Below are positions 347 through 41,572 of a stretch of DNA of 64,000 bases, in pieces (within the stretch, counting starts at the first letter, position 1; each line of letters begins with the position of its first letter). The notes beneath the pieces are model-generated. The model was not told where the DNA came from and did not search any database. It saw only the letters and a program-made list of their open reading frames with translations. The DNA is from Candidatus Acidiferrum sp. (GTDB lineage Bacteria; Acidobacteriota; Terriglobia; Acidiferrales; UBA7541): positions 1,591 through 65,590 of the forward strand of contig JBGPDI010000006.1 of the NCBI GenBank assembly GCA_041482215.1, in the 5' to 3' direction. A program made the translations under genes and the position numbers.

Positions 347-437
347 TCCACAGCAGTTCTCGATTGCATTCTACTGACAACTGAAATAGAAGACAGACCC
401 TGGACCGTATACGTGCGTGCGGAGGAGTGGGTTTGCC

Positions 438-1748
438 ATGAAAACATTTAGAGTCCTGCTGGTGATGATTTTCATCTCGCTGTGTGCGAACGGGCTTTAC
501 GCACAGGAGAAGCCGAATGCCAAGACCGTCAAAGCCGTGCGCTTTGGAAAACTTTGGGATGCGAAAGGGAAGTTGTGGATGAACGCTATCGTGATCGTGG
601 AGGGCGACAGAATTCGTGCGGTGACGACGGATGCAGCTGCGATCCCTGCTGGCGCGGAGATTATTGACCTGTCGAAATACACGGGGCTGCCGGGGCTGAT
701 TGACGTGCACACGCACATGACGATGTACACGGATGAGACTCCGGGTGAGCCGATGTTGAAGCAACTGCCCAACAATCCGCCGGCGGTGGAGGTGTTCCTG
801 GCGCGAAAAGGCGCGATGCGAACGCTTGAGGCGGGTGTGACGACGGTGCGCGATCTCGGCGCGGACCAGTACATGGACATCGCCATGCGCGACTTAATCA
901 ACCGCGGGGAACTGATTGGGCCGCGCATGTTTGTTTGCGGGTACGGGCTGTACATCACGAATACACCTTATAAGCCGGGACTGAATCTTCCGGCGGGTGG
1001 GATCGCTGATGGCGTTCCAGAAGTTTTGAAGGTGGTGCGGCAGCAGATTGCGGCGGGCGCCGATGTAATCAAATTGTACGGATCGACGGGAACGGATGAC
1101 GATGTGACGGGATTTGAGACGTATACCTACGAGGAGATGAAAGCGGCGGTGGAGATGGCGCATCAGTTTGGGAAGAAGATTGCGATTCACTCGTATGGGC
1201 CGGACGGGGCGCGGGACGCGGTGCGCGCGGGAACGGATTCGCTGGAGCATGCGACAGATATGGATGACGCGACGATTCAGGAGATGGTGAAACGCGGGAC
1301 GTTCTATGTGCCCACCATTGATCACAACCGCTATTACCTGGACAACTGGCAAAAGATTGGCTATGCGAACGGTTTTCAGGAGAAGAGTAAGGCGTTCATT
1401 GAGCGCAATTTGGAGACGGCGCGGAAGGCGCACAAAGCGGGAGTGAAATTCGCCATGGGCTCGGATGCGATTTACACGATGTTCGGACAGAATACGCGCG
1501 AACTGGGCTGGTTTGTGAAAGCGGGAATGACGCCGGAGCAGGCGCTTCGAACGGCAACGACGAATGCAGCTGAGTTACTTGGAAAAGAAAAAGAACTCGG
1601 GGCGGTTGCGCCGGGTTATTTTGGCGACTTGGTGGCGGTAGAAGGCGATCCACTGGCCGACATTAATGTCGCGATTTATAACGTGAAGTGGGTCATGAAG
1701 GGCGGCGCGGTGGTGGCGGACAAGACCAAGGAACAAGTTCGCAAGTGA
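438..1748 (+). CDS. Secreted metal-dependent amidohydrolase family protein
   Basis: ORF 417..1748. ATG at 438 is preceded by GGAGGAG (421-427). Signal-like N-terminus MKTFRVLLVMIFISLCANGLYAQ. DVHTHM metal-binding motif, later HSYG and GSDA motifs, and length all fit the amidohydrolase superfamily. Confidence 0.85.
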   Translation: MKTFRVLLVMIFISLCANGLYAQEKPNAKTVKAVRFGKLWDAKGKLWMNAIVIVEGDRIRAVTTDAAAIPAGAEIIDLSKYTGLPGLIDVHTHMTMYTDETPGEPMLKQLPNNPPAVEVFLARKGAMRTLEAGVTTVRDLGADQYMDIAMRDLINRGELIGPRMFVCGYGLYITNTPYKPGLNLPAGGIADGVPEVLKVVRQQIAAGADVIKLYGSTGTDDDVTGFETYTYEEMKAAVEMAHQFGKKIAIHSYGPDGARDAVRAGTDSLEHATDMDDATIQEMVKRGTFYVPTIDHNRYYLDNWQKIGYANGFQEKSKAFIERNLETARKAHKAGVKFAMGSDAIYTMFGQNTRELGWFVKAGMTPEQALRTATTNAAELLGKEKELGAVAPGYFGDLVAVEGDPLADINVAIYNVKWVMKGGAVVADKTKEQVRK

Positions 1749-1814
1749 TAGACCGAAGCCGATTTCAGGCTTTGTCAATGCGGTGTATATGCCAAGCGCG
1801 TGCTAATTGGGCTT
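1683..1814 (+). repeat. Direct repeat copy A: last 21 codons plus stop of the amidohydrolase gene and 66 nt downstream
   Basis: Hand alignment with 3567-3698 gives equal length (132 nt) and 9 mismatches. Confidence 0.9.
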
Positions 1815-2708
1815 TAGCGGGCTGTAACCGTCGGGCAGACTGTAGGCGAAGCCACGCTCTCCGAAATTGACGTCGAGCAGGCGAGACTTGAGAAAGTTAT
1901 CGATCGGCACGCTCGAGTACAGGATGCCAACGGAGTCACGCCCCAGGGTGAGGTTGAAACCACCGGAGCTGCCGGGAAGTCCATTTTCCCATTCTCCATT
2001 TTTCCTGGTGTACAGCTTGGCGTTATCCAGGTCGATGCCATAGCCGAGCGTGTAGTGTGCGACGTTGTTATCCGTGCGGCGGATGGTGATGAGACTTCCG
2101 CTCATGGCGCCATGCTTATTCACCACGCCATTTTCGATGACCAGCTGGAGAACGCCGACGGAAAAGGTAGCGTCCGCTAGTTTTTGAATGCCAGGCTCGT
2201 CGACGGTGACCTCAAAATACCATTTGCCTTTGGTTTTGTGTTCGAGCGTGAAGAGATCGTAGACCGGTGCCGTGTCGGAACCAGCGGCGGGGGCAGACGC
2301 GGCCGGGGCGACGCTATTGGATTTTTGATAGCTATAAAGCGCCTGGACACGGTCATTGGTAAAGCGCACAACGCAGACAGTCTGCTGATAGTCACGCAGG
2401 AGATCGGCGAGCCAGGCTTCGCGCTCGCCCTTACTCCACGTGATGCCGCAGTCCTGGTCGCGCATCTTGATCCAGGAGCGCTGATCGTTGCGAAGGGTAA
2501 TGCGGTCATCCGGAGAGAGGGACTTCATGAGGTCGCCGTAAACTCGGTTGATGGTGCGGTCGGAGCCGCGCAGTTCGTCGCCGACGCATTGGGCGCGTTG
2601 CGTGCTGGTCTTGGGATTGTCGCACCGGGCATGGGCGCTGCTGGGCGTCAGCGCGAGAAGCAGAGGCACTGCTACCAGCGCAAAGACCATCGTGGACCGA
2701 TTTCGCAT
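1803..2708 (-). CDS. Secreted protein fusing an LprI/DUF1311-like domain to a SPRY-like domain
   Basis: ORF 1803..2867. Internal ATG at 2708 is preceded by AAGGAG and gives signal peptide MRNRSTMVFALVAVPLLLALTPSSAHA. The Cys-bracketed segment CDNPKTSTQRAQCVGDELRGSDRTINRVYGDLM...RNDQRSWIKMRDQDCG resembles DUF1311. The C-terminal part has SPRY hallmarks: KGKWYFEVTVD, GYGIDLDNAKLYTRKNGEW and VNFGERGFAYSLPDGYSPL. Confidence 0.7.
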   Translation of the reverse strand: MRNRSTMVFALVAVPLLLALTPSSAHARCDNPKTSTQRAQCVGDELRGSDRTINRVYGDLMKSLSPDDRITLRNDQRSWIKMRDQDCGITWSKGEREAWLADLLRDYQQTVCVVRFTNDRVQALYSYQKSNSVAPAASAPAAGSDTAPVYDLFTLEHKTKGKWYFEVTVDEPGIQKLADATFSVGVLQLVIENGVVNKHGAMSGSLITIRRTDNNVAHYTLGYGIDLDNAKLYTRKNGEWENGLPGSSGGFNLTLGRDSVGILYSSVPIDNFLKSRLLDVNFGERGFAYSLPDGYSPLKPN

Positions 2709-2922
2709 GGAAAGCTCCTTGAGCAGACTGGCGGTGATGAAAACCTGGATTTTCTCTCCAGCCAGAGTAACAAGGCGAAATCTTAGGCGTCTATCGGGGA
2801 AAGAGCGGCAGTTGACGGAAGCTGCAACAGCGGACACGGACTGAGCCGTCACAGATAAGCGCGACACGCAATTGGGCCGTGGTCACTGATAAGACTTAAA
2901 GATCGAAAGCACTAAGCATCCT

Positions 2923-3249
2923 TCACCGTTCCGGAATCTCAACCTCGCAGTAGGTGCCGGGCTTTGCAGCGTTTACTGCGGCCACGACGCGATCCACATG
3001 GTGACGCAGCACCGGCCACTGCGGATTTCCCAGGACGACGATCGCAATCTTGTATTTCATTAAATTCTGCTGGTTTCGGATGTTTTTGTCGGGAGTGACC
3101 AACACTTCGAACCCGGCTTCCTCAGCGGCTTTTAGCAAATCGCCGTTCTTGAGCTTGTCCCACCCTCGTTGCCAAGCAGTTTCAACTGTATGTCCCTTAA
3201 GGAAGGGACGGATAGGGATCGGAGTACTCTGGTCGAAAAGAACCAGCAT
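2923..3249 (-). CDS. DUF5615 / Mut7-C-like PIN-fold protein, putative toxin
   Basis: 108 aa. MLVLFDQSTPIPIRPFLKGHTVET...GDLLKAAEEAGFEVLVTPDKNIRNQQNL resembles DUF5615. Its start overlaps the stop of the upstream DUF433 gene at 3249. Confidence 0.65.
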   Translation of the reverse strand: MLVLFDQSTPIPIRPFLKGHTVETAWQRGWDKLKNGDLLKAAEEAGFEVLVTPDKNIRNQQNLMKYKIAIVVLGNPQWPVLRHHVDRVVAAVNAAKPGTYCEVEIPER

Positions 3250-3494
3250 CAGCGGGCAACAGACGATGAAGGAGTCACTTCAAGGCTGCGAGCGGCAAAT
3301 TCGATGACGGCTTCGACTTGTTGGCGGTCCAGACCTTCGAACCATTCCATAATCTCGTCAAGGTTGGCGCCGGCTTTCAGATTTTCAAAGATGATGGAGA
3401 CGGGCATACGCGTGCCCTTAAGCACCCAGGCGCCGCTTACCTTGCCCGGGATGCTTTCTACCGCAGGGCATTGTGACCAATCCAGCGCTGCCAC
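3249..3494 (-). CDS. DUF433 family protein, putative antitoxin
   Basis: 81 aa with a GTG start and AGGAG 9 nt upstream. SIPGKVSGAWVLKGTRMPVSIIFENLKAGANLDEIMEWFEGL is the typical DUF433 core. Paired with the DUF5615 gene. Confidence 0.7.
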   Translation of the reverse strand: MAALDWSQCPAVESIPGKVSGAWVLKGTRMPVSIIFENLKAGANLDEIMEWFEGLDRQQVEAVIEFAARSLEVTPSSSVAR

Positions 3495-3566
3495 GGAAGG
3501 ATTCTCCTTTCGATCATTCTATACCTTTTCGCGGGTCAGTGCAGATGCCAGTGTGCTCTGAACAAT

Positions 3567-3632
3567 GTGAAATGGGTGATGAAGGGCGGGGCGGTGGTGG
3601 CGGACAAGACCAACGAACAAGTTCGCAAGTGA
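3567..3632 (+). pseudogene. Orphan 3'-terminal fragment (21 codons plus stop) of an amidohydrolase allele or paralog
   Basis: Encodes VKWVMKGGAVVADKTNEQVRK*, versus VKWVMKGGAVVADKTKEQVRK* at 1683-1748. There are 4 nt differences, 3 of them synonymous third-position changes. No upstream coding continuation. Confidence 0.85.
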
Positions 3633-3698
3633 AAAAACGAAGCCGATTTCAGGCTTTGTCAGTGCAGTGTATATGCCAAGCGCGTGCTAATTGGGCTT
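3567..3698 (+). repeat. Direct repeat copy B
   Basis: Matches 1683-1814 with 123 of 132 identical by hand alignment. It ends 1 nt short of the far edge of the stop codon of the convergent AlbA_2 gene (3697-3699). Confidence 0.9.
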
Positions 3699-5010
3699 AC
3701 AATCTGCGATGGAGTAATTTCTGAATGTAGGCCCGAAGTTGTTCAACGTCGGGATTCTCTAGATGAAAGCCTTTGAGCATGGCTCGTGTCAAATTCTCCG
3801 CAATATCTTCCACACCGGCTCTCCAATCTGCGAGAGTATGAATGCTCTTAACGGAGATTTCTGGCCGATTTGCTTCATACTGTGACCTGGACCAGCGCAT
3901 CTGATTGTTCCAGACCAGCCCCCTCCCTCGTGTTCCAAAGAGTGTGACGTCAAGAGTGATGACGTCAGAGTCGGTGAGCAATGATTCATACAGTCTACCG
4001 ATACAATGAGTCACCTCTGCGAAATAATACGCAATTCCGGGAACTGAGACGATTTTAGGTTCGCTTGCTGCGTTGTACATCAACTGTTTCTTGTAAAACA
4101 ACCCAGACTCGTTTAGTCGCCAAAAATCCAACATGTCTTCGTTCGAAAAGTCCGCTCCCGGAATGAGGGACTCGAAACCGTCATCAGTTTTCGACAAGTA
4201 GTCTGGGCGGTTGTGATGAATGAACAGAAAGGGCCAACCCCTGAAATCGACGTGAGCATTGTGAGCCGCCCGTTCAAGCTTTTCAGGTGGAAATCGATAA
4301 CGGTCAAATTCTTCCAGTGAGAAGATGGCCTCTGCGAAAAATGTGTAGTTCTTTTCTTTCAGGGGATTGCGAGTCTCAAACTCTATTTGCGCGGCTTTGA
4401 CCTGCGCGGAGAACTGTTCTTCAACAGATGGCATTCTCTTTACAGTGTTAGTTTCAGCGCCTGTAAGGATGGCGCGAAATGATGCGAGCATAGAATCTTT
4501 CCGATTTCGAATTGCTGATTCAATGAGCAATCGGAAGTCTGCTGACGACTTGATTGGTGCGGTCTCATTGTTGTCGGTGCGCACGTACAGCTCACGGTCT
4601 CGAAGTACGTCAGGGTAATCCTTTTGGCAAATATGAGGAGTGTCGAGAAACCGGGGTATTTCCAGCACTACAAATATGCAGTCCCTATGAGAGACCTTTT
4701 GTACACGAACGTTTATGGGCGGGTCCACATAGTTCTGAACAAATTGGCAAATGGCGGAAGACTCGTAGGTTTTCGCCTGCTCAGCAGTTACTCCGACGAG
4801 GTTAAATCCATGGCTCAGTTCGGAAACTCCGATGACGATGTACCCGCCCTCTGTATTTGACATCCCGATGATGTCTTTGACCAGTTCGCAGCGCATCTTT
4901 TTGTCATGCGAATCCCACATCACGGGGCCTTTGTAGTCTAGGCTTTTTGACTCAAAATTCCTTTCGATGATTGAGATTAACTCGACGCTCGCTGGGATGA
5001 TGTTTTCCAT
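3697..5010 (-). CDS. AlbA_2 (Schlafen-like, putative DNA-binding) domain protein with an unassigned C-terminal region of about 300 aa
   Basis: 437 aa. The N-terminus FESKSLDYKG...VKDIIGMSNTEGGYIVIGVSE matches the AlbA_2 pattern (E..lEfK ... aNteGG.l.iGv). I recognise nothing in the rest. The gene is visibly AT-rich: 43 G+C in 4021-4120 versus 58 in 15001-15100 by hand count. Confidence 0.7.
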   Translation of the reverse strand: MENIIPASVELISIIERNFESKSLDYKGPVMWDSHDKKMRCELVKDIIGMSNTEGGYIVIGVSELSHGFNLVGVTAEQAKTYESSAICQFVQNYVDPPINVRVQKVSHRDCIFVVLEIPRFLDTPHICQKDYPDVLRDRELYVRTDNNETAPIKSSADFRLLIESAIRNRKDSMLASFRAILTGAETNTVKRMPSVEEQFSAQVKAAQIEFETRNPLKEKNYTFFAEAIFSLEEFDRYRFPPEKLERAAHNAHVDFRGWPFLFIHHNRPDYLSKTDDGFESLIPGADFSNEDMLDFWRLNESGLFYKKQLMYNAASEPKIVSVPGIAYYFAEVTHCIGRLYESLLTDSDVITLDVTLFGTRGRGLVWNNQMRWSRSQYEANRPEISVKSIHTLADWRAGVEDIAENLTRAMLKGFHLENPDVEQLRAYIQKLLHRRL

Positions 5011-5236
5011 ACCGTTTCTTGGTCACCGCCAGTACGAATATACGCTTCTAGGCTGCTTCCGCCCACAGCGCGCCGAGCGGCTGGACACACACCAACCGCT
5101 GCGGGGCCCCATATGCCGATCTTGCGTGTGGGGCTTTTGACTTTTCCTGTCGCCGTCTTTTCCTTACTTCTTACGTCCTTACCTCACTACCTCGTTTCCG
5201 CATTCCTCCGCGGGCAGCGCATAGCTGCCTGTGCCA

Positions 5237-5968
5237 CTAGGATCCCTCCTTACTTCCATTTCCGTTCTTTCTTTGGACGGGAGTGGGGGGAATGAGCTTG
5301 CCGGCGGCTAGGTCATCGAGGGCACGGAGGCGGCTGGTGAGTTCGTGGGCGCTCAAGCGGCGGTCGCGGTAGAGCGAGCGTACAAACTCGACGGCGTGGC
5401 GCTCGGCCTTCAGCGAATTGCAATCCAGACAGCAGGAGACGAGGTTGCGGTAGGAATTGCTGCCGAGGCTGGCCTGCGGAACGACGTGGTCGAGGCACCG
5501 CCTCTCGCGGATGAGGCGGCGCAGACAATAGAAGCAGCGGCCGCCCTCGCGGGCGTGGATGGCGTGTCGGCGCGGCTGAATTTGGAGGAAGTCGATCTCC
5601 CCGAAGCCGGTTGCGCCTGAAGGTTGGACAGAGCCCTGGGCTGCGGCCTGGGCAGCACGCACAGCCTGGACTTCGCACGGCAGCCGGACACAAACGACGT
5701 GATGGGCCTGGCAACTGCGTTCGACCAAGCGCAATACGCCCCAAGCAATCAGGCGACGAACGGACTCACGAGCGGTACTCGGGGAGAGTCGAATGCGGGG
5801 GCCGAGCCAGGACATCGAAAAACGGATGCGGAGCTTGCCTACGAGGCGGCTGTGCCGGAGAAGATGGGAGTAGACGGCGCGGTCGATCACGGAAAAGTTC
5901 AGCCGGGGCGCGAGGCGGTCTTCAAAATCTTTCCAGACCTGTGCGGCGTCGATGGTTTTAGTTTTCAT
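5237..5968 (-). CDS. Winged-helix plus HNH endonuclease domain protein
   Basis: 243 aa. The C-terminal half has CFYCLRRLIRERRCLDHVVPQASLGSNSYRNLVSCCLDCNSLK, which is CxxC...DH...N...CxxCN, a canonical HNH motif. The N-terminal STARESVRRLIAWGVLRLVER looks like a wHTH recognition helix plus wing. Confidence 0.75.
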   Translation of the reverse strand: MKTKTIDAAQVWKDFEDRLAPRLNFSVIDRAVYSHLLRHSRLVGKLRIRFSMSWLGPRIRLSPSTARESVRRLIAWGVLRLVERSCQAHHVVCVRLPCEVQAVRAAQAAAQGSVQPSGATGFGEIDFLQIQPRRHAIHAREGGRCFYCLRRLIRERRCLDHVVPQASLGSNSYRNLVSCCLDCNSLKAERHAVEFVRSLYRDRRLSAHELTSRLRALDDLAAGKLIPPTPVQRKNGNGSKEGS

Positions 5969-6038
5969 AATTTTGGTCCTGAGAGGGAGGTTGATAAGTC
6001 GAGAGCTGACAGCTGACAGCGGAAGAAAAGGCAGAGCC

Positions 6039-6079
6039 TTAACACAGAGATCACAGAGACAAGAGCACAGAGGTCACGG
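6039..6079 (+). repeat. TTAACACAGAG / CACAGAG-type intergenic repeat, copy 1
   Basis: ttaacacagagatcacagagacaagagcacagaggtcacgg. A related copy starts with the same 11-mer at 23756. Confidence 0.7.
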
Positions 6080-6091
6080 ACAAACAAAAAC

Positions 6092-6113
6092 GCCGGCAGG
6101 ATGCCGGCGCTAC
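6092..6113. repeat. GCCGGC-hairpin repeat GCCGGCARGATGCCGGCGCTAC, copy 1
   Basis: gccggcaggatgccggcgctac, compared with gccggcaagatgccggcgctac at 20706-20727 (1 mismatch). Confidence 0.8.
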
Positions 6114-6221
6114 GAAATGAGAAAAGCAGAGACGTCTGCAGGAAGCCGACGTAAGACACGGGGGGTAGCGTGGCAAGCCCCGCCACTACAAGGGAAAGCG
6201 GCAGCAAGGCTGCCGCACTCC

Positions 6222-6253
6222 AAAAAAGAAAAAGCCCCGACTGGCATCGGGGC
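6222..6253 (-). terminator. Rho-independent terminator-like hairpin on the minus strand
   Basis: Minus strand reads GCCCCGA-tgccag-TCGGGGC followed by ctttttctttttt. A second perfect hairpin (GCGGCAG-ccttg-CTGCCGC, 6198-6216) follows. Confidence 0.55.
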
Positions 6254-6484
6254 GCACTCTTCTACACTCACTAATCTACCAAACTAGTAATCTCCTTGTC
6301 AAGTAAAACTGTGGTACCTTTAAGCTATTGAAGAGAGGCGGTTTAGCCTAGGATGAAACGTGGCGTCGTTCGTGGTGGACAAGACGAAACCGGTGGTAAG
6401 TCATTAGATGCTGTCTCACGAATGGTTCTGAGGACGTAAAGACTTTCCTCGGGGGCTAAAGCCCAAGGAAAGTGCGCTCTCTAT

Positions 6485-6504
6485 GTCGGAGCTAAAGCTC
6501 CGAC
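6485..6504. repeat. REP-like perfect hairpin GTCGGAGC-TAAA-GCTCCGAC
   Basis: 8-bp stem with a 4-nt loop. A related GGGC-TAAA-GCCC hairpin lies at 6453-6464. Confidence 0.6.
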
Positions 6505-6709
6505 CCCCTAAACTGCTATTGAGAGGCAATTTCTAGCAAACGGAAATAGAAACGGGCTAGAAGGCAAATGCGCCCGCCCTCCAGCCCGAGTGCCCAAGGA
6601 GAATCTGACACTACCGCTATGACTGGCCGATGGGCAGATTTATGCCGGGGGATCTGGAAAATCTAGAGACCAATGCCCGCGCAACCTGAGTCGTAAGTAG
6701 TGGCCTTAT

Positions 6710-6738
6710 TTGACGATGGTGGGGCGCGACGGTAGAAT
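6710..6738 (+). promoter_or_regulatory. Sigma-70-like promoter for the aldehyde dehydrogenase gene
   Basis: TTGACG (6710-6715), 17-nt spacer, TAGAAT (6733-6738). Predicts a 5' UTR of about 85 nt before the ATG at 6829. Confidence 0.5.
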
Positions 6739-6828
6739 TTAGCTTCCACGACGTAGTGTCTCGCGTGCAGACCCGCAGTGGACCGGACGAAAAGCTAAGC
6801 GGCAGGCTTGAGGGATTGAGGAGGAAGT

Positions 6829-8331
6829 ATGGCTACAGCAGTTACGCCTCGGATGTTCAACAATTTTATCAATGGCGAATGGGTGGAATCGCGAAGCGGG
6901 AAGTCCTACGAGAACCGCAACCCGGCGAACACCGAAGAATTGATTGGAATGTTCGTCTCCGGAACGGAAGAAGATGCAATTCAGGCGGTGGATGCCGCCA
7001 AGGAAGCGTACAAGAAGTGGCGGCTGGTGCCTGCGCCAAAGCGCGCGGAGATCATGTACCGCGCGGCGGAATTGCTGGTGCAGCGTAAGGAAGAGTTTTC
7101 CAAGGATATGACGCGGGAGATGGGCAAAGTCCTGGCGGAGGCACGTGGGGACGTCCAGGAAGCCATCGACATGACGTACTACATGGCTGGCGAAGGGCGA
7201 CGGCTGTTTGGGCAGACAACTCCATCGGAACTGCCAAACAAGTTTGCGATGAGCGTGCGGCAGTCTATCGGCGTGTGCGCCATGATTACGCCATGGAATT
7301 TTCCGATGGCGATTCCGTCGTGGAAGATCATGCCGGCGCTGATCAGCGGAAATACGGTGGTGATCAAGCCGGCGCAGGATACGCCGCTGTCGGTCTACAA
7401 CCTGATACAGGTGCTCACCGAAGCGGGCCTCCCTCACGGAGTGGTAAATCTGGTTAGCGGAAGCGGGTCGAAAGTTGGCGCAACCCTTGCGGGGAGCAGC
7501 GATGTGCCGGTGGTCAGCTTTACTGGCTCGACGGGAGTAGGCCGCATCATTTCGCAGACCTGTGCCCCAGAGTTCAAGCACTGCAGCCTGGAAATGGGCG
7601 GGAAGAACATCATCATTGTAATGGATGATGCCAACCTGGATTTGGCGGTTGACGGCGCAGTTTGGGGCGGCTTTGGGACGTCGGGACAGCGCTGCACGGC
7701 GGCCAGTCGAGTGGCCGTACACAAGAGTGTGTACAAGGAATTCGTGGAGCGGTTTGTGGCAAGGGTGAAGTCGCTGAAAGTTGGAAACGGGTTGGATGCA
7801 TCGGCGGAAATGGGGCCGTGCATCAACGAGTCGCAACTGAAGACCGTGATGTCGTATGTGGGAATTGGAAAAGATGAGGGAGCAAAGCTGTTGACAGGCG
7901 GGAATCGGTTGGATGGCGGGGCTCATTCGAAAGGCTGGTTCCACGAGCCAACGGTGTTTGGAGATTGCTCGCCAAACATGCGGATCGCGCAGGAAGAAAT
8001 TTTTGGCCCGGTCGTCTCCGTGATTCCGATCGATAGTTTCGATCAAGCCATCGAAGTGGCAAATGGCGTGATCTATGGGCTTTCTGCTTCCATTTATACG
8101 CGAAATGTAAATCAGGCTTTCCAGGCGACGCGCGATCTCTACACCGGAATTGTTTACGTAAACGCGCCGACGATTGGAGCAGAAACGCACCTGCCCTTTG
8201 GCGGCACCAAGCAAACCGGCAACGGGCACCGTGAAGCGGCCATCGCAGCGATCGATTTCTTCACCGAGTGGAAAACGATCTACATCGATTATTCTGACAA
8301 GCTGCAGCGCGCCCAGATCGATAACGCTTAG
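6829..8331 (+). CDS. NAD(P)-dependent aldehyde dehydrogenase family protein
   Basis: 500 aa with SD GAGGAGG upstream. ALDH motifs are present: [22 protein letters not shown] and EEIFGPV. Confidence 0.9.
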
Positions 8332-8413: not shown

Positions 8414-9457
8414 ATGAGGAATTCTGCTCTTCAAGAACGGCGGAACCGCCAGATTCTGGCGGACATCGTTCGCGCATACATCGAGACGGGGGAACCGGTA
8501 TCCTCGCGCGCGATTTCGAAAGGGTTTGAGGAGACGCTCAGTACCGCGACGATTCGAAACGTCATGGCCGACCTGGAGGATGGCGGCTTTCTATATCAGC
8601 CGCATACGTCTGCTGGGCGCGTGCCGACGGCGGCGGCGTACCGCTTCTTCGCACAAGAGATTGCGTCGCAAGCCACTATCAGCGTGGTGGATCGGGAATG
8701 GATTCAGCGGGAGATGAGCGGCGCGACCAGCGCTACGGAAATCACGGAGCGCGCGGGGCATGTGCTTGCGGAAGTATCCAACGGGCTGGGCATTATTGTT
8801 TCGCCACCGCTGGGCAAAACTGTTCTAGAACACGCGCGGATGTGGCTGCTGCCGGACGGCCGAGTGGTGGTAGTGCTGATTTCTCCGGGTGGGAATACGC
8901 GGGACAAGATTCTGCGGCCGCACCGCTTGTTTACACAGATGGAGTTGGATGCGACTGCGGATTTCTTGAACCGGCACTATTCGGGATGGACGCTGGAAGC
9001 GATTCGCAGCGACCTGCTGCAAAAACTTGCCACGGAGCGTGAACGCTACGAAGGCATCGTGCAAAACGCGCTCTCACTGTGGGACCCTGCGGTGTTGGGA
9101 GAAGAATCAACGCTGCACGTCCACGTGGAAGGTACGGCGCAGATCGTTGGCGCAGCGGAATTTGCGAATCAGGCGCAAATGCGCGATTTGCTGGCGGCGA
9201 TCGAAGAGAAGCACCGGCTTGTGACCGTGTTGAATGCTTGCATTGAAACTCCCGAACCGGTGCACGTACAAATTGGCGTGAAAGAGATTTCCGAGGCGGG
9301 CGAAAACCTGGCGTTGATCAGCGCAGCCTATACACGCAATGACATGGTGCAGGGTTCGCTGGGAGTGCTGGGACCGACGCGCATGCACTATGAGCGCGCT
9401 ATGACGGCCGTGGCTTACGTCGCGCAGCTTTTCAGTGAAGCGCTGGGCAAGATTTGA
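8414..9457 (+). CDS. hrcA: Heat-inducible transcription repressor HrcA
   Basis: 347 aa. N-terminal wHTH RQILADIVRAYIETGEPVSSRAISK. Followed by grpE and dnaJ. Confidence 0.9.
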   Translation: MRNSALQERRNRQILADIVRAYIETGEPVSSRAISKGFEETLSTATIRNVMADLEDGGFLYQPHTSAGRVPTAAAYRFFAQEIASQATISVVDREWIQREMSGATSATEITERAGHVLAEVSNGLGIIVSPPLGKTVLEHARMWLLPDGRVVVVLISPGGNTRDKILRPHRLFTQMELDATADFLNRHYSGWTLEAIRSDLLQKLATERERYEGIVQNALSLWDPAVLGEESTLHVHVEGTAQIVGAAEFANQAQMRDLLAAIEEKHRLVTVLNACIETPEPVHVQIGVKEISEAGENLALISAAYTRNDMVQGSLGVLGPTRMHYERAMTAVAYVAQLFSEALGKI

Positions 9458-13594: not shown

Positions 13595-13629
13595 ATGGCG
13601 ATATTGAATGAAAAATATGGGAGGCCACA

Positions 13630-14814
13630 CTGACCGAAGTTCAGCACCGACCTGCGATTCTCGCGCTGGAGGACGGGCGCGTCTTTAACGGCCGCGCTGC
13701 CGGCGCGATCACGCGCCGCGGCGGAGAAGTCGTTTTTAATACCAGTCTCACCGGATATCAGGAAGTTTTCACCGATCCCAGCTACGCCGGGCAGATCGTC
13801 TGCTTAACCTATCCGCACATTGGAAATGTTGGCGCGAATGTTGAAGACGAGGAATCCTCACGTCCGTACATCGAATCTCTGATCGTGCGGGAGTTCTCAC
13901 AGGTATCTTCCAACTGGCGGTCTGCGGAAACGGCCCAGTTGTATTTGAACCGGCACAAGATTCCGGTGATCTGGGACATTGATACGCGGGCGCTGGTTCG
14001 GCACATTCGAAACGCTGGCGCGATGCGTGGCGTTGTTTCGACGGATGGAACGCCGTCGGAGCAATTGATTTTCGAAGCGAAGCAATTGCCGGTCATGGCT
14101 GGACAGGAGCTCGCGAGCCGCGTTACCTGCGCGAAGTCCTACGGGTGGGACAAAGGATCCGTGGACGTCGCGATTTCGCCGTGGGCGGAACAGATGGGTG
14201 AATCGGACGCGCACGGCGAGACTCGGAAGCATCGCGTGGTGGCTTACGATTACGGGATCAAACTGAACATTTTGCGTTTGCTGGTTGACCACAATTGCGA
14301 AGTCTTTGTGGTGCCGGCGCAAACTTCTGCCGAAGATGTTTTGGAGATGAAGCCGGACGGCGTCTTCCTTTCGAACGGGCCGGGCGATCCGGAGCCCGTC
14401 GGCTATGCGGTGGAAAATATTCAGAAGCTCATCGGCCGCGTGCCGGTCTTTGGGATTTGTTTGGGGCACCAACTTTGCGGATTGGCGCTAGGTGGAAAGA
14501 CTTTCAAGCTGAAGTTCGGTCACCATGGTTCGAACCATCCGGTAAAGAATTTGCTCACGGAACAAGTGGAAATCACCGCGCAGAATCATGGATTTTGCGT
14601 TGATCCCGAATCGTTGCCGTCGAGCAAAGTTGAAATTACACACATCAATTTGAATGACAGCACCAACGAGGGCATGCGCCACAAGTCGTTGCCGCTCTTC
14701 AGCGTGCAGTATCACCCGGAGGCATCGCCAGGACCACACGATTCGCACTACCTATTCACACAGTTCACGGATTTGATGAAGGAATTCGCCCAGCCAGGGA
14801 GTTCCCGGCACTGA
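13630..14814 (+). CDS. carA: Carbamoyl-phosphate synthase small (glutaminase) subunit; probable CTG start
   Basis: The ORF track begins at an internal GTG (13885), but the conserved N-terminus [18 protein letters not shown]...[37 protein letters not shown] is encoded in frame from 13654. An in-frame TGA lies at 13609-13611 and there is no ATG, GTG or TTG before 13885. GGGAGG (13619-13624) sits 5 nt before CTG at 13630. Confidence 0.85.
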
Positions 14815-27607: not shown

Positions 27608-28756
27608 GTGGAATTTGGCCTAACTGAGGAACAGCAGCAGCTACGCCGGAGTGTTCGGGCGTTCGCCGAGGGCGAGATCGGTCCGCACGTAATGGAGTGG
27701 GATGAGGCTTCCCATTTTCCCGCGGAGATCATGCCGAAGTTGGGAGAGATGGGGCTGCTCGGGGTGATTTTTCCAGAGCAGTATGGGGGAGCGGGGCTGG
27801 GGTACATCGAGTACGCGCTGGCGATTGAAGAGTTGTCGCGAGTGGATGGATCAGTTGGGCTAATTGTTGCGGCGCACAATTCGCTTTGCTCAAACCACAT
27901 TTTTAAGTTTGGGACGGAGGCACAAAAGAAAAAGTATCTGGTGCCGTTGGCTTCGGGGAAGGCGATTGGGGCGTGGTCGTTGACGGAGCCTGAGGCGGGC
28001 TCGGATGCCGGTGGTACGAAGACGACGGCGGTGCGCGATGGGAAGCATTGGGTGCTGAACGGTGCGAAGACTTTTACGACGAACGGCCACTACGCGAATT
28101 ATTGCATCGCGATGGCGGTGACGGATAAATCTATGGGTTCACACGGAATCAGCGCGTTTGTTTTGGAAAAAGGAATGCCGGGGTTTAAGCCGGGGAAAAA
28201 AGAAAACAAGCTGGGGATGCGAGCGAGTGACACTTCGGAAGTGATTTTTAGCGATTGCCGCGTGCCGGAGGAAAATTTATTGGGGCCGGAGGGCGAGGGT
28301 TTCACGGGCAGCTTGAAGATTTTGGATGGTGGACGGATTTCGATTGCGGCGTTGGCTTTGGGGATGGCGCAAGGTGCACTTGAGGCGGCTACGAAGTACG
28401 CGAAGCAACGAAAACAGTTTGGGCAGCCGATCAGCGAGTTTCAAGCGGTGCAATTTAAACTGGCGGATATGGCTACACAGGTCGAAGCGGCGCGATTGCT
28501 TGTGTATCAGGCTGCGTGGCTGGCGGATAAGAAGGATGTGCGGTTCACGCGGGAATCGAGCATGGCGAAGCTCTTTGCGAGCGAAATCGCGGTCAGCGTG
28601 GCGAATGAGTGCGTGCAGATTCACGGCGGGTACGGATTTATCAAGGATTATCCAGCGGAGAAATATTACCGCGATGTGAAGCTCTGCACGATTGGCGAAG
28701 GCACGAGTGAGATTCAGCGATTGGTGATTGCGCGGCAGCTGCTTGGCAAGAAATAA
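27608..28756 (+). CDS. Acyl-CoA dehydrogenase (short/medium-chain type)
   Basis: 382 aa. [49 protein letters not shown]. Confidence 0.92.
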
Positions 28757-38460: not shown

Positions 38461-39003
38461 TTAGTCGTTGAAGAGTCGGGGCTGGGAAACGCCGGCAGCA
38501 GCCGCGGCGGGTTTGCGGCGGGCGATGCCAACGACTCCGAGGACGGTTACTTCGGAGAGCGCGGCACGCGGAACGAAAACGCGGTCTGTGGAGGAGTTCA
38601 AATCGGGCGTGGTGATTTGCAGACCGTTGTCGAGGAGCGAGAGCAGATCGTTGGGAACGACTCCTTCGAGGGTCTCGCCATCAATGAAGCGCAACTTTAC
38701 CCACAGGCCGTCGAGCTTTGGGCGGCTCAGAAAGGCTTTGCGCTCGGGTTCAAAGTCGTCGGAGAACTCACGGACGAAATAGATGGAGCGCACTCGGGCT
38801 AGGGGAACTTCTAAGTGTTCGCCTTCGGGAGTGAGCAGATCGATGGGATCGGCCTGCCCCAGATGAGCCGGGTTCAAATAGCCGCGCACCGGCTTCTTGT
38901 CGCCGAGGACAACGATGACCTTCTTGTGCGTGGAGGCTGGGGCTCTCGTTTTCAAGATTGCGCGTTTTTCCGGTCTGGATAGCTCGAATTTGCCAATTGG
39001 CAA
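38461..39003 (-). CDS. Conserved-looking hypothetical protein of unknown family
   Basis: 180 aa. Clean ORF between lpxD and murJ with protein-like composition and no motif I can name. Confidence 0.5.
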   Translation of the reverse strand: MPIGKFELSRPEKRAILKTRAPASTHKKVIVVLGDKKPVRGYLNPAHLGQADPIDLLTPEGEHLEVPLARVRSIYFVREFSDDFEPERKAFLSRPKLDGLWVKLRFIDGETLEGVVPNDLLSLLDNGLQITTPDLNSSTDRVFVPRAALSEVTVLGVVGIARRKPAAAAAGVSQPRLFND

Positions 39004-39080: not shown

Positions 39081-40679
39081 TTGACCGATAAAAAACATAT
39101 CCTCAAATCGGCGTCGATCATCTCCCTGGTCACTGTCGCTAGCCGCGTACTAGGCTACGTCAGGGACCAGCGCATTGCCCTCCTCCTCGGAACGACTCCC
39201 GCCGCTGATGCGTACGTTCTTGCCTATCGGATCCCAAACTTATTCCGGCGGCTGGTTGCCGAAGGGTCGATGACCGCGTCTTTTATCCCAGTTTTTACCA
39301 GTTACATGCGGGAGAAATCGAAGGAAGATGTTTGGGCCTTTGCGAACCGGCTCTTCTGGACGCTGGCTCTGGTAGCTGCGGTCATTACAGTGCTAGGGAT
39401 GGTTTTTTCTCCGGCGGTGGTACACCTGTTCGCTGGAAAGAACATAGCGGGTGCGCAAGCGGTGGACCTGAACCGGATTATCTTTCCGTATTTATTTTTT
39501 GTTTCGCTCGCCGCGCTGGCGATGGGAATATTGAATTGCTTTCACATCTTCGGACTGCCTGCGGCGACGCCTGTTTTCTTGAATCTGGCAACAATTCTCT
39601 TTACGTTTGCCGTCGTTCGGAATTATTTCAAGGATGCGGCGACTTCCATTGCCGTTGGAGTCCTGGTTGGCGGCGTACTGCAATTCTTGATTCAGGTTCC
39701 AGTGCTTGTTCAGAAAGGGATGAAGTTTAATTTTGGGATATCTTTTTCGCATCCGGCCATCCGCGATGTTGCTCGGCTGATGCTCCCGCGGCTATTTGGA
39801 ATTGGCATCGGGCAAATCAACCTGCTGGTGGATACGCGGTTTGCAACAGCCAGCATGATGCCGAAAGGCAGTCTTGCTGCGTTGTATTTGGCCGATCGAG
39901 TCATGGAGCTGGTGCTGGGAGGGTACGCCATCGCGGTGGCGACGGCGATCCTGCCGATGATGTCTCACCAGGCAGCCACCAAGGATTATGAATCACTTAA
40001 GAAGACGCTTTCATTTTCCGTGCGCATTGTCGCGTTTATCACGATACCTGCGGCCCTTGGTCTGATGATCCTGCGCGAACCGATCATTCGCGTGCTCTTC
40101 CAGCACGGCCAGTTCGACCCGGAATCGACACGCCTGACGGCTCGGGCGCTCCTCTATTACGCAGTGGGATTGCCGGCCCTGGCTTCCGTGAAGTTGATCG
40201 TCCCAGCGTTCTATTCAACGCGGGACACCAAGACGCCGGTCATTATTGCTTCGATCTCATTGGTACTGAATGTCGTTCTGAATATTGTTTTCCTGGAATT
40301 CTTCTTCAAGCGCGTCCAGAACGGGGGGCCGGCGCTTGCGACCGGCCTGGCTACTTTCTTTGATTTCTTTGCTCTGTTCATTATTTTTCGGCTGCGTTAC
40401 GGACCGCTCGGAACGATGGACATCCTTCGCTCGTTTTCAAAGGTGTCGTTGTGTGCGGGAATTATGGGTGTGGCCTGCTGGTTTGGGAATTACTACACGG
40501 CGTTTGCCATACACTCGCGGTTCCTCGTGCAGCTGGCCATTTTTGTCGGCCTGATTGGTGGGGCAACCGCTATTTTCCTTGGCCTCGCGTGGCTCTTCAG
40601 GTGCCATGAAATCGAGGAAGTCTACGGAATTGCGACCCGGCGGACAGCTGGTGGCGGGCCCGGGTACATGGGGAGCTGA
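39081..40679 (+). CDS. murJ: Lipid II flippase MurJ
   Basis: 532 aa with a TTG start. About 14 TM segments. N-terminal SRVLGYVRDQRIALLLGTTPAADAYVLAYRIPNLFRRLVAEGS is the MurJ/MviN signature. Confidence 0.92.
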   Translation: MTDKKHILKSASIISLVTVASRVLGYVRDQRIALLLGTTPAADAYVLAYRIPNLFRRLVAEGSMTASFIPVFTSYMREKSKEDVWAFANRLFWTLALVAAVITVLGMVFSPAVVHLFAGKNIAGAQAVDLNRIIFPYLFFVSLAALAMGILNCFHIFGLPAATPVFLNLATILFTFAVVRNYFKDAATSIAVGVLVGGVLQFLIQVPVLVQKGMKFNFGISFSHPAIRDVARLMLPRLFGIGIGQINLLVDTRFATASMMPKGSLAALYLADRVMELVLGGYAIAVATAILPMMSHQAATKDYESLKKTLSFSVRIVAFITIPAALGLMILREPIIRVLFQHGQFDPESTRLTARALLYYAVGLPALASVKLIVPAFYSTRDTKTPVIIASISLVLNVVLNIVFLEFFFKRVQNGGPALATGLATFFDFFALFIIFRLRYGPLGTMDILRSFSKVSLCAGIMGVACWFGNYYTAFAIHSRFLVQLAIFVGLIGGATAIFLGLAWLFRCHEIEEVYGIATRRTAGGGPGYMGS

Positions 40680-41572
40680 TGGAGATTAGCGCGACAATAT
40701 CGTCTTTCTTGACGCACGTACGTGTGGAGAAGGGATTGTCGTCCAATACCGTATCCGCATATCGCCGCGATCTAACGAAATTCGATGTCTTCGCGCGCAA
40801 ACGAAAGGCGAGCCTGGAGGCGGTCACGCGCGATGATTTGGTTGATTTCCTGGCTGGGCTCTATCGGTCGAACCTGGAAAGCAAGTCCGTCGCGAGACAT
40901 CTGGTCACATTACGGAATTTTTTCCGGTTTGCGCAGATACAGGAGCTGATTTCGGAGGATCCATCCATAAATCTGGAATCGCCGAAAATTCGTCGCTCGT
41001 TGCCCGGTTATTTGCGCCTCGAGGAAGTGGAGCGGTTGCTGAACCAGCCCGACGTGAAGACTCCGTATGGTTTGCGCGACCGTGCCATGTTGGAGGTTTT
41101 ATACTCCACCGGCCTGCGTGTATCGGAACTCACTGGACTGCGCGTCATAGATCTCGATATGAAGGTTGGTTGTGTGCGTTGCATCGGCAAAGGGGATAAG
41201 GAACGGATTGTTCCCGTTGGCAAAAAAGCGCTAAGCATCGTTGAAAAGTATCTCCGCGAGGCCAGACCCAAGCTACTCGGCAAAATGCAAGGCAGCCCCA
41301 CGCTATTCGTAAACCGTAGGGGCGTGCAATTGAGCCGCGTGGGTGTCTGGAAGATACTTTCGGCTTACGGAAGGCTCGCGGGAATGCGGGTGGCGCTCAC
41401 CCCGCACATGCTGCGGCATAGTTTTGCCACGCACCTGCTCGAGCGGGGAGCGGACCTGCGGTCCGTTCAACTGATGCTCGGACACGCAGATATTTCGACG
41501 ACTCAAATTTACACTCACGTTGTCGAAGAGCGGTTGAAACAGATTTACAAAGCGCATCACCCGCGTGCATAA
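40679..41572 (+). CDS. xerD: Site-specific tyrosine recombinase XerD
   Basis: 297 aa. LSSNTVSAYRRDL at the N-terminus. Catalytic region HMLRHSFATHLLERGADLRSVQLMLGHADISTTQIYTHV. Confidence 0.88.
   Translation: MEISATISSFLTHVRVEKGLSSNTVSAYRRDLTKFDVFARKRKASLEAVTRDDLVDFLAGLYRSNLESKSVARHLVTLRNFFRFAQIQELISEDPSINLESPKIRRSLPGYLRLEEVERLLNQPDVKTPYGLRDRAMLEVLYSTGLRVSELTGLRVIDLDMKVGCVRCIGKGDKERIVPVGKKALSIVEKYLREARPKLLGKMQGSPTLFVNRRGVQLSRVGVWKILSAYGRLAGMRVALTPHMLRHSFATHLLERGADLRSVQLMLGHADISTTQIYTHVVEERLKQIYKAHHPRA

Follow-up and report, generated by a model that had tools for sequence, protein, structure and literature searches.

Displaced amidohydrolase gene ends between gene cassettes mark an integrase-free hotspot in Candidatus Acidiferrum

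A stretch of 64,000 nucleotides (nt) from the Candidatus Acidiferrum sp. assembly GCA_041482215.1 (contig JBGPDI010000006.1, positions 1,591 to 65,590; hereafter the window) contains a direct repeat that copies the 3' end of an amidohydrolase gene. The assembly has a size of 5.13 Mb in 221 contigs, which are numbered here with the prefix C, the window being C6:1591-65590. Between the amidohydrolase gene and the next conserved gene, which encodes an aldehyde dehydrogenase (ALDH), lies a series of small gene cassettes separated by further copies of the amidohydrolase end, and we regard this locus as a genuine case of gene-end displacement at a cassette hotspot free of an integrase. With moderate confidence, we interpret the repeat as a scar left at the amidohydrolase-ALDH hotspot when 3' ends were serially displaced through homologous plus illegitimate recombination, as proposed for rhs loci. 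An earlier note on this sequence had offered three origins (a decayed islet, a cassette mobilised in trans, or cassette exchange by homologous recombination at a hotspot), of which the last fits best.

The repeat search paired positions 1680-1814 with 3564-3698 (135 nt, 93% identity, spacing 1884), and MAFFT gave an identical register. This pair includes the 132-nt repeat reported before (1683-1814 and 3567-3698), for which the computational alignment returned the same 9 mismatches (9/132) that had been counted by hand. Four of them fall within the last 21 codons and consist, as described, of three synonymous changes (AAG/AAA, GTC/GTG, GGC/GGG) and one exchange of K to N (AAG/AAC). Under a uniform model, in which 21.7% of the possible single changes are synonymous, the probability of finding three or more synonymous changes among four is 0.034, which is suggestive only. 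The left copy (A) indeed holds the last three codons and the stop of an LprI-domain gene (stop at 1803-1805), and the right copy (B) ends at the stop of an AlbA_2 gene (3697-3699). Weaker homology of copy B to the amidohydrolase reaches left to 3518 and thus beyond the repeat of the earlier note. All other direct repeats in the first 8 kb are at most 36 nt long and at most 82% identical, and no third full-length copy was found across the 5.13-Mb assembly; a chance origin of the repeat can thus be excluded.

A and B belong to a set of four amidohydrolase 3'-end copies in the window, all in the same orientation and in the order A, C, B, D; C and D had not been noticed before. The interval reads amidohydrolase gene, LprI cassette, copy C, DUF433 gene pair, copy B, AlbA_2 and HNH genes, copy D, ALDH gene. 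For comparison, related loci (numbered with the prefix L) were fetched with the amidohydrolase protein, yielding 80 soil-metagenome loci (85-91% amino acid (aa) identity) and 10 loci from species-representative genomes. Copy A (1634-1814, plus strand) is the live gene end up to 1748 (gene-end part 1634-1748), followed by 66 nt that include the last three LprI codons and the stop (1803-1814). Copy C (2874-2918, plus strand) is a 45-nt remnant with its own stop, located 4 nt before the gene for a 108-aa protein. The final 37-45 nt of the intact amidohydrolases of L077 and L088, which end in ...KDRGH* directly before the same 108-aa gene, align with it; copy C is a surrogate end of the DRGH* type that travels with the DUF433 cassette. 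Copy B (3518-3698, plus strand; gene-end part 3518-3631) is a displaced end of chimeric make-up: from 3518 to about 3610 it is a pseudogene fragment, termed type-1 and described below, and from there to 3698 it matches copy A. The weakest of the four is copy D (6352-6400, plus strand), a short diverged remnant with the core GTGGTGGACAAGAC, which lies to the right of the HNH upstream region. It was recovered by local alignments, and the repeat search grouped it as the third member of a repeat family. Its junction of HNH-upstream and gene-end sequence recurs in L102 (15718-15783), and L105 (4500-4600) contains an HNH-upstream stretch homologous to that of the window with a degraded gene-end core. 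A fifth, very degraded remnant may be present to the left of copy C, where the sequence GCCGTCACAGATAAGCGCGACACGCAATTGG (2846-2877) is similar to the gene-end core (GCCGTGGTCACTGATAAGAC).

In the earlier note, the repeats had been read as attL/attR-like boundaries of a single three-gene element of 1.75 kb. The view that DNA entered at the 3' end of the amidohydrolase and brought surrogate ends with it holds up; the single element does not. The LprI gene and the DUF433 pair are two cassettes parted by the gene-end remnant at 2874-2918, and L088 holds both separately, in reverse order and each with its own copy. The att-site reading is not supported either: neither the boundaries nor the crossover points of the displaced copies are fixed, and the right-hand repeat is chimeric.

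Among the related loci the amidohydrolase-to-ALDH interval is hypervariable. A homolog of the amidohydrolase is present in 80/80 loci, and it has a peptidoglycan-binding gene as its conserved neighbour in all 80 metagenome loci and in 2 of the 10 genome loci. Genes in these loci were called by codon-usage scoring; calling the longest open reading frames had chosen antisense frames. Empty sites, which had been suggested as a check for insertion, exist in five loci (L083, L092, L096, L109 and L112), where 324-377 nt without any gene separate the two core genes; these loci belong to a more distant clade, in which the amidohydrolase has a different C-terminus. The non-empty loci contain 1-10 kb of small genes. 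Toxin-antitoxin pairs are frequent (DUF433 with its partner, DUF3368/UPF0175 and, by sequence, VapBC-, MazF- and RelE-like pairs), and there are small enzymes or membrane proteins (SnoaL-like, RibD_C, DUF1761, DUF7010, DinB) and Y1_Tnp (IS200/RAYT-like) genes. The defence-type genes comprise Imm49, AlbA_2, HNH, a reverse transcriptase (RVT_1, L090:9252-10979), a TIR protein (L059:8432-9391) and an AAA_15/AAA_21 ATPase (L084:3490-4815); since the arrays carry the last three, the hotspot appears to act as a defence islet across the genus. Many of the locus contigs break off within a few hundred bases past the amidohydrolase stop, as expected where strains differ. When relatives from the genus, first 60 and then 120, were searched at the DNA level, a single clear secondary gene-end copy turned up (in G134), which suggests that the arrays are concentrated in the sub-clade of the window, and an exact 23-mer of the repeat had no match in the species-representative genomes.

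Extra copies of the amidohydrolase 3' end were found between cassettes in 19 of the 47 loci that hold at least 1 kb of the interval. In total, 29 copies were counted in 20 loci, all on the amidohydrolase strand. L088, for example, reads gene, DUF433 pair, partial copy, SnoaL-like gene, copy, LprI gene, copy and, further on, HNH. L105 reads gene, DUF433 pair, copy, DUF3368/UPF0175/DUF433, copy, F144, ALDH, and L061 reads gene, F29 and F32, copy, ALDH (F-numbers such as F28, F29, F32 and F144 denote gene families from our own clustering of the loci). Each cassette type is tied to a particular form of the gene's terminal five codons and stop, and this applies to live and displaced ends alike. The DUF433 pair has DRGH*, the DUF3368/UPF0175 pair TQPR*, F28 (a cassette gene family without assignment) AQVR* and a Y1-like gene AQPH*; GQVR* accompanies a hairpin-containing sequence 3' of the gene in loci that have no adjacent cassette.

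The displaced copies start at different distances from the stop, namely at about -165 (L070), -125 (L067), -113 (type-1, L087), -55 (beside HNH) and -45 (copy C). Partial type-1 copies end after 44 or 62 nt and are then followed by another cassette. The type-1 copy is a frameshifted pseudogene fragment with an identity of about 90% between loci; the live genes of these loci are 15-25% different in this part. Displaced ends also keep their former downstream DNA: copy B retains 66 nt with 12 nt of the LprI gene, the copy in L067 retains the start of the F28 flank, and terminal copies retain the hairpin-containing gene-downstream sequence of the loci with a cassette-free end. Within the type-1 repeat (e.g. 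L077:10496-10609), a 10-nt sequence that lies about 60 nt upstream of the DUF433 start, CGGATATCCG, is a perfect palindrome; it is missing from the live gene alleles, is degenerate in the window (3546-3557) and might function as an operator or a nuclease site. Rfam gave no match to the repeat family, and RNAalifold on 12 copies detected no conserved hairpin (covariation term +0.82, 1 of 27 pairs compensatory).

Copy B combines two of these sequence types. At 45 aligned positions in its left part, 41 match type-1 and 10 match copy A, while at the last 20 aligned positions 20 match copy A and 4 match type-1. Its final 12 nt (3687-3698) are the end of an LprI gene that has since been lost there. 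These alignments show copy B to be a chimera of a type-1 left part and a copy-A-like right part that includes the remnant of an older, truncated LprI cassette. The suggestion in the earlier note that copy B diverged in another allele or genome rather than by decay in place is borne out, as its left ~95 nt belong to the type-1 family, which is ~90% identical in many lineages. A second chimera was found in L105 (2933-3054), which is type-1 on the left and from about 2956 aligns to the live gene end of L049 and then to the cassette of that locus until 3194, with high identity. The breakpoints of the two chimeric copies lie at differing positions. Copy B also contains a terminator-like hairpin on the minus strand (3640-3656), and the stretch 1780-1859 next to the live end is 97.5% identical to the junction that precedes the LprI gene in L088.

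The cassettes and their flanks have different histories, which had been named as a point that would separate insertion from an old local duplication: identity across lineages is 91-96% in the cassettes and 79-85% in the flanking core genes, which shows that cassettes have been exchanged horizontally. The LprI gene is 95.7% identical (nt) between the window and L088, where it sits between two displaced ends, as compared with 79.6% for the 5' part of the amidohydrolase. In comparisons with L088, L066 and L077, the 108-aa gene (91-93%), DUF433 (91-95%) and HNH (90% nt identity) stand against the 5' part of the amidohydrolase (79.6-81%), the peptidoglycan-binding gene (79-82%) and the ALDH gene (79-85%). 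Copies of the DUF433 pair with 91-95% nt identity are present in 14-23 other loci, where they mostly sit right behind the amidohydrolase stop. The last ~450 nt (the 3' third) of the amidohydrolase gene are a mosaic, with tracts of 100% identity (~1515-1650) to loci that are 66-80% identical slightly upstream. Because these tracts adjoin strongly diverged sequence, recombination tracts must end inside the 3' part of the gene. A similar step was seen within the species: L137 (GCA_041494145.1) does not differ from the window over 5250 nt, after which 54 mismatches follow in 454 nt (~12%) of the HNH gene (window 5251-5704), a sharp recombination breakpoint at the 3' edge of this gene.

The statement that no integrase, transposase or tRNA lies near the repeats proved correct: the window is free of tRNA genes, and its sole recombinase is a XerD protein encoded at 40679-41572, 37 kb away. 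The domain scan of cassette proteins covered ~50 proteins from 29 of the 80 loci and the interval genes of the window, and it revealed neither a tyrosine or serine recombinase nor a DDE transposase. A search with PF00589 (Pfam) that covered the whole genome showed that it encodes about 10 tyrosine recombinases.

The same scar occurs elsewhere in this genome. When 3068 confident genes were scanned for a duplicate of their last 150 nt downstream on the same contig, further loci were found on C21, C23, C28 and C34, all of them direct. On C28 (2300-9286), a small gene has its last 115 nt (2533-2647) repeated at 5670-5784 (84%), and a convergent gene (8792-9286) has its last ~50 nt repeated at 4825-4874 (92%); the repeats bracket Y1, HNH and SnoaL-like genes, and gene ends are thus displaced from both flanks. 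The other three are same-strand duplicates of the last 60-75 nt of a gene that lie 1.2-10 kb downstream (C23:3041-3101 and 5598-5660; C21:12324-12385 and 13599-13660; C34:28369-28446 and 38653-38729). No tyrosine recombinase was found on these four contigs. As the same scar is present at other genes on contigs without an integrase, we think of a general process rather than of a locus-specific enzyme. Other repeats were discarded upon inspection. The local repeats on C72 and C120 and an 86-nt repeat on C28 are multi-copy families similar to repetitive extragenic palindromic (REP) sequences. On C11, a RelE/ParE-like toxin-antitoxin pair is flanked by 175-nt repeats (27640-27814 and 28439-28613, 94% identical), which resemble a miniature inverted-repeat transposable element, with terminal inverted repeats (GGGTGGCGCAC / GTGCGCCACCC) and an internal hairpin, and are not a gene end. 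A motif related to this element (GGGTGGGGCAC...CTCCACCCGCC) is located downstream of the amidohydrolase in loci that have no cassette beside the gene.

The mechanism that we propose would proceed as follows. Incoming DNA from a related lineage would carry the terminal part of the amidohydrolase gene together with its downstream content, and would recombine homologously within the resident gene. The other junction could be illegitimate, inside or just past the resident gene end; it could arise by single-crossover (Campbell-type) insertion of a circle, or it could be homologous in an older displaced copy. The incoming end would then become the functional one, and the resident end with its old neighbour would be shifted downstream. 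A linear molecule, anchored by homology within the gene on one side and joined illegitimately on the other, would lead to the same outcome as a circle. Once present, displaced copies would serve as portable homology for later gains, losses and reshuffling, and double crossovers (in the gene on the left, in any copy on the right) could move cassettes between lineages.

Applied to the window, an earlier array would have consisted of the amidohydrolase with a KDRGH*-type end, the DUF433 pair, and copy B with an LprI cassette. The AlbA_2 block would have cut this older LprI cassette down to 12 nt, and a second amidohydrolase end with an LprI cassette would have arrived from a lineage that was ~7% diverged, with a right junction 45 nt before the resident stop that left copy C behind. 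Copies A and B would then be two alleles of 'gene end plus start of LprI cassette', which would explain both their 93% identity and the synonymous bias of their differences.

Several points weigh against homology-driven displacement. The left boundary of type-1 is common to four cassettes (DUF433, DUF1761, SnoaL-like and LprI) within ~5 nt (..TCTATACC|TTTTCGCGGG), which random illegitimate joins do not readily explain; a microhomology of three nucleotides (ACC) is the most that can be suggested at this junction. Recombination between lineages that are 15-20% diverged is inefficient, and the model depends on the stronger conservation of the gene end and on the repeat that travels with the cassettes. 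Cassette genes in the loci are found 136 times on the minus and 64 times on the plus strand, a possible sign of a directional constraint. The conspecific contigs L137-L142 show only the filled form, and neither a circular form, a deletion junction, another alternative junction nor a strain-level empty site was seen; L140 and L142 had been considered as variants without the LprI gene, but their sequence is 100% identical to that of the window. Finally, the arrays come from metagenome contigs with internal repeats, in which misassembly is possible, and their gene calls come from our own codon-usage scoring. Despite this caveat for multi-copy arrays, the arrangement of the window itself is reproduced: exact-protein look-ups yielded five independent assemblies (L137-L142) that share it with 99-100% identity.

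Due to the shared type-1 boundary, the strand bias and the presence of HNH in most non-empty arrays, two other explanations keep some weight. One is site-specific integration in trans, with the gene end as att site, integrase-less cis-mobilisable cassettes inserted in tandem, and the repeats as attL, internal att and attR. Direct repeats built from the 3' end of the target gene, inserts that bring surrogate ends, empty sites, a single orientation of all copies and the common type-1 boundary would all follow from it, and the genome has recombinases that might act from a distance. Still, we consider it unlikely. Neither the interval nor the sampled cassette proteins include a recombinase, the boundaries of the displaced copies range from -165 to -45 nt, the chimeric breakpoints vary, and the repeat has no conserved inverted repeat or hairpin; moreover, the scars at four other, unrelated genes would demand several specificities. 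The other is capture stimulated by a nuclease, in which the winged helix-turn-helix (wHTH)-HNH protein, alone or together with Y1, would cut near gene ends, and repair from ectopic or foreign templates would insert and duplicate sequence. It resembles homing, or the C-terminal duplications made by mobile open reading frames, and the shared type-1 boundary could be a cleavage hotspot. Of the 12 complete arrays that are not empty, 8 contain an HNH gene or remnant, and the 5 empty sites have none, an association that is confounded by phylogeny, as the empty sites form a separate clade. The nuclease family is very large, and two of its four paralogs in the genome lie inside the few arrays with 3'-end duplications (on C6 and C28). 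However, arrays with displaced ends but without HNH exist (L061 and, in the own genome, C23 and C21), and HNH may simply be another selfish resident of the hotspot, which makes this explanation rather improbable.

Two further explanations conflict with the data more directly. An old local tandem duplication that decayed in place, without foreign DNA, would agree with two same-strand copies 1.9 kb apart and with an arrangement that is constant in all conspecific contigs. It is contradicted by cassettes that are far more alike across lineages than their flanks, by the left part of copy B, which is ~90% identical to the copies of other lineages and matches the resident gene at 10 of 45 positions, and by the empty sites and other cassette orders in relatives, and we give it very little credence. 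Hardly any probability at all is left for an integron-like array in which the repeats are attC-type folded sites for an integron integrase. Small cassettes, many toxin-antitoxin pairs, a strand bias and an element that is repeated behind every cassette do recall integrons. There is, however, no IntI with an attI beside the array; the only nearby recombinase, XerD, scores 132 bits against the integron-integrase model, below its cut-off of 265. Unlike attC sites, the repeats share homology with the gene next to them, and the lack of a conserved attC-type hairpin contradicts this explanation. Homology-driven displacement is thus preferred to a dedicated integrase on account of the variable boundaries, the variable chimeric breakpoints, the linkage of cassettes to their own ends and the recurrence at unrelated genes without a recombinase.

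The genes of the interval are as follows. The amidohydrolase gene (417-1748, plus strand; Pfam Amidohydro_1, E = 1e-48) is the conserved left flank and the recombination anchor. Its product is Xaa-Pro-dipeptidase-like, with 319 bits to the NCBIfam model XaaProDiPepCaul, which is under the cut-off of that model. The right flank, ALDH (6829-8331, plus strand), is likewise conserved and AlphKGSA_gudD-like (NCBIfam, 570 bits). Pfam supports LprI, DUF433, SLFN_AlbA_2 and HNH (HNH_5/HNH_4/HNH) domains in the proteins between them. Cassette 1 (1803-2708, minus strand) encodes a secreted LprI-domain protein. Of its former label, LprI-SPRY, the first part is supported (Pfam, E = 1e-13), but the C-terminal half has no Pfam assignment and no SPRY match. 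LprI-domain paralogs with 69-72% identity occur upstream of the amidohydrolase in three loci (L058:1784-2677, L097:1116-2015 and L106:3-905), so the family seems to be native to the neighbourhood as well as part of a cassette. In L088, the LprI gene is also flanked by a REP-like direct repeat of ~65 nt with hairpins (GGGGGTCGGAGCTYTAGCTCCGAC...GTGGGCTTTAGCCC; 4560-4650 and 5700-5770). Cassette 2 (2923-3494, minus strand) is a two-gene operon of DUF433 (3249-3494) and the 108-aa partner (2923-3249), whose stop and start overlap. DUF433 was correctly named (Pfam, E = 8e-15), but the DUF5615 label of the partner was not recovered, since this protein has no Pfam match of any family at E <= 10. The overlap and the pairing, which is kept in 14 loci, fit a putative toxin-antitoxin pair.

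Cassette 3 (3697-5968, minus strand) comprises an AlbA_2/Schlafen-like gene (3697-5010) and the wHTH-HNH nuclease gene (5237-5968), for which PADLOC reported PDC-S50 and weak PtuB-like matches. The GC content of AlbA_2 is ~47-48%, as opposed to 55-60% in the GC profile. No AlbA_2 homolog was found in the 80 related loci, 13 of which contain an HNH homolog. In L134 (ENA ERZ28533575, 2907-4333), an HNH protein 98% identical to that of the window lies beside a 210-aa Y1_Tnp-like gene and not beside AlbA_2, which suggests that AlbA_2 is a recent replacement or addition in the lineage of the window. The wHTH-HNH gene has four genome paralogs with 49-56% aa identity, three of which are located beside Y1_Tnp (IS200/RAYT-like) genes amid REP-like repeats (coordinates: window 5237-5968, C72:17212-17907, C27:23077-23841, C28:3447-4160). 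With 3987 clusters at E <= 1e-10 in the protein collection, the family may represent a selfish or domesticated module typical of such hotspots. An Rfam search of 1500-7000 gave nothing relevant, and the idea that the type-1 repeat acts as a leftward promoter for the cassettes was dropped after a sigma-70 scan of 1600-3800 had found no site.

Small islets of defence or toxin-antitoxin genes that lie between core genes without a visible integrase vary in many bacteria, and the route by which they arrive is largely unresolved; a recent SAR11 preprint makes this point explicitly. The displaced ends provide a fossil record of single insertions, in which one can read which DNA came with which end, where the junctions lie and that they were reused, and they make an integrase-free route of gene gain concretely testable at the amidohydrolase-ALDH locus. 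The genomic signature is a same-strand duplicate of the last 45-165 nt of a gene, 1-10 kb downstream, and it flagged the four additional loci in the same genome. A wider speculation, to which we assign a low probability, is that the ends of conserved housekeeping genes are reusable landing pads of a recombinase-free cassette system that functions like an integron, in which each cassette carries a gene-end copy as a portable recombination site, in soil Acidobacteria and perhaps in many phyla. The wHTH-HNH protein, with or without Y1, might stimulate capture by cutting at a defined point, which would explain the shared type-1 boundary.

Among known systems, integrase islands at gene 3' ends (tRNA/tmRNA islands, cis-mobilisable elements, tycheposons) share with this locus the direct repeats derived from the target's 3' end, the surrogate end supplied by the insert, stacked inserts with internal repeat copies and empty sites in relatives. 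They differ in that the arrays examined here have no integrase in or beside them, that no single crossover position is seen (although the type-1 boundary is common to four cassettes) and that the cassettes measure 0.6-2 kb. Integrase-free hotspots such as those of Escherichia coli (PMC10121019) and the core defence hotspots of Pseudomonas aeruginosa (PMC10250203) also have a fixed slot between core genes with defence and toxin-antitoxin genes that vary by lineage. In contrast to these, the displaced ends at our locus record individual insertions; we did not find such scars described in PMC10121019. Homology-facilitated illegitimate recombination, with one homologous anchor and one non-homologous junction, would give the product 'incoming end plus cargo, resident gene from -k', and we know of no case of it in Acidobacteria. 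The process is mentioned for the uptake of foreign DNA in PMC6382021.

The closest parallel is the displacement of C-terminal ends at rhs loci (Jackson et al. 2009, PMC2935791) and in arrays of orphan CdiA C-terminal toxin-immunity modules (Koskiniemi et al. 2014, PMC3967940). There as here, pieces of the gene's own 3' end lie behind the intact gene in the same orientation; they vary in length, are each tied to their own downstream genes and keep their former downstream sequence. Laterally acquired ends shunt the old end downstream without a dedicated recombinase, and the mechanism proposed is homologous recombination through circular intermediates: in the model for rhs loci, a circle carrying a core fragment and new downstream DNA is inserted by a single crossover, and a RecA-dependent circular intermediate has been proposed (PMC2935791). 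The differences concern what is exchanged. Our anchor is an ordinary metabolic amidohydrolase rather than a polymorphic toxin. Instead of alternative functional C-terminal domains, its variable tails consist of about five codons and a stop without evident functional diversity, and the diversity resides in separate downstream genes, i.e. in independent cassettes of toxin-antitoxin genes, defence-type genes and small enzymes that mostly lie on the opposite strand.

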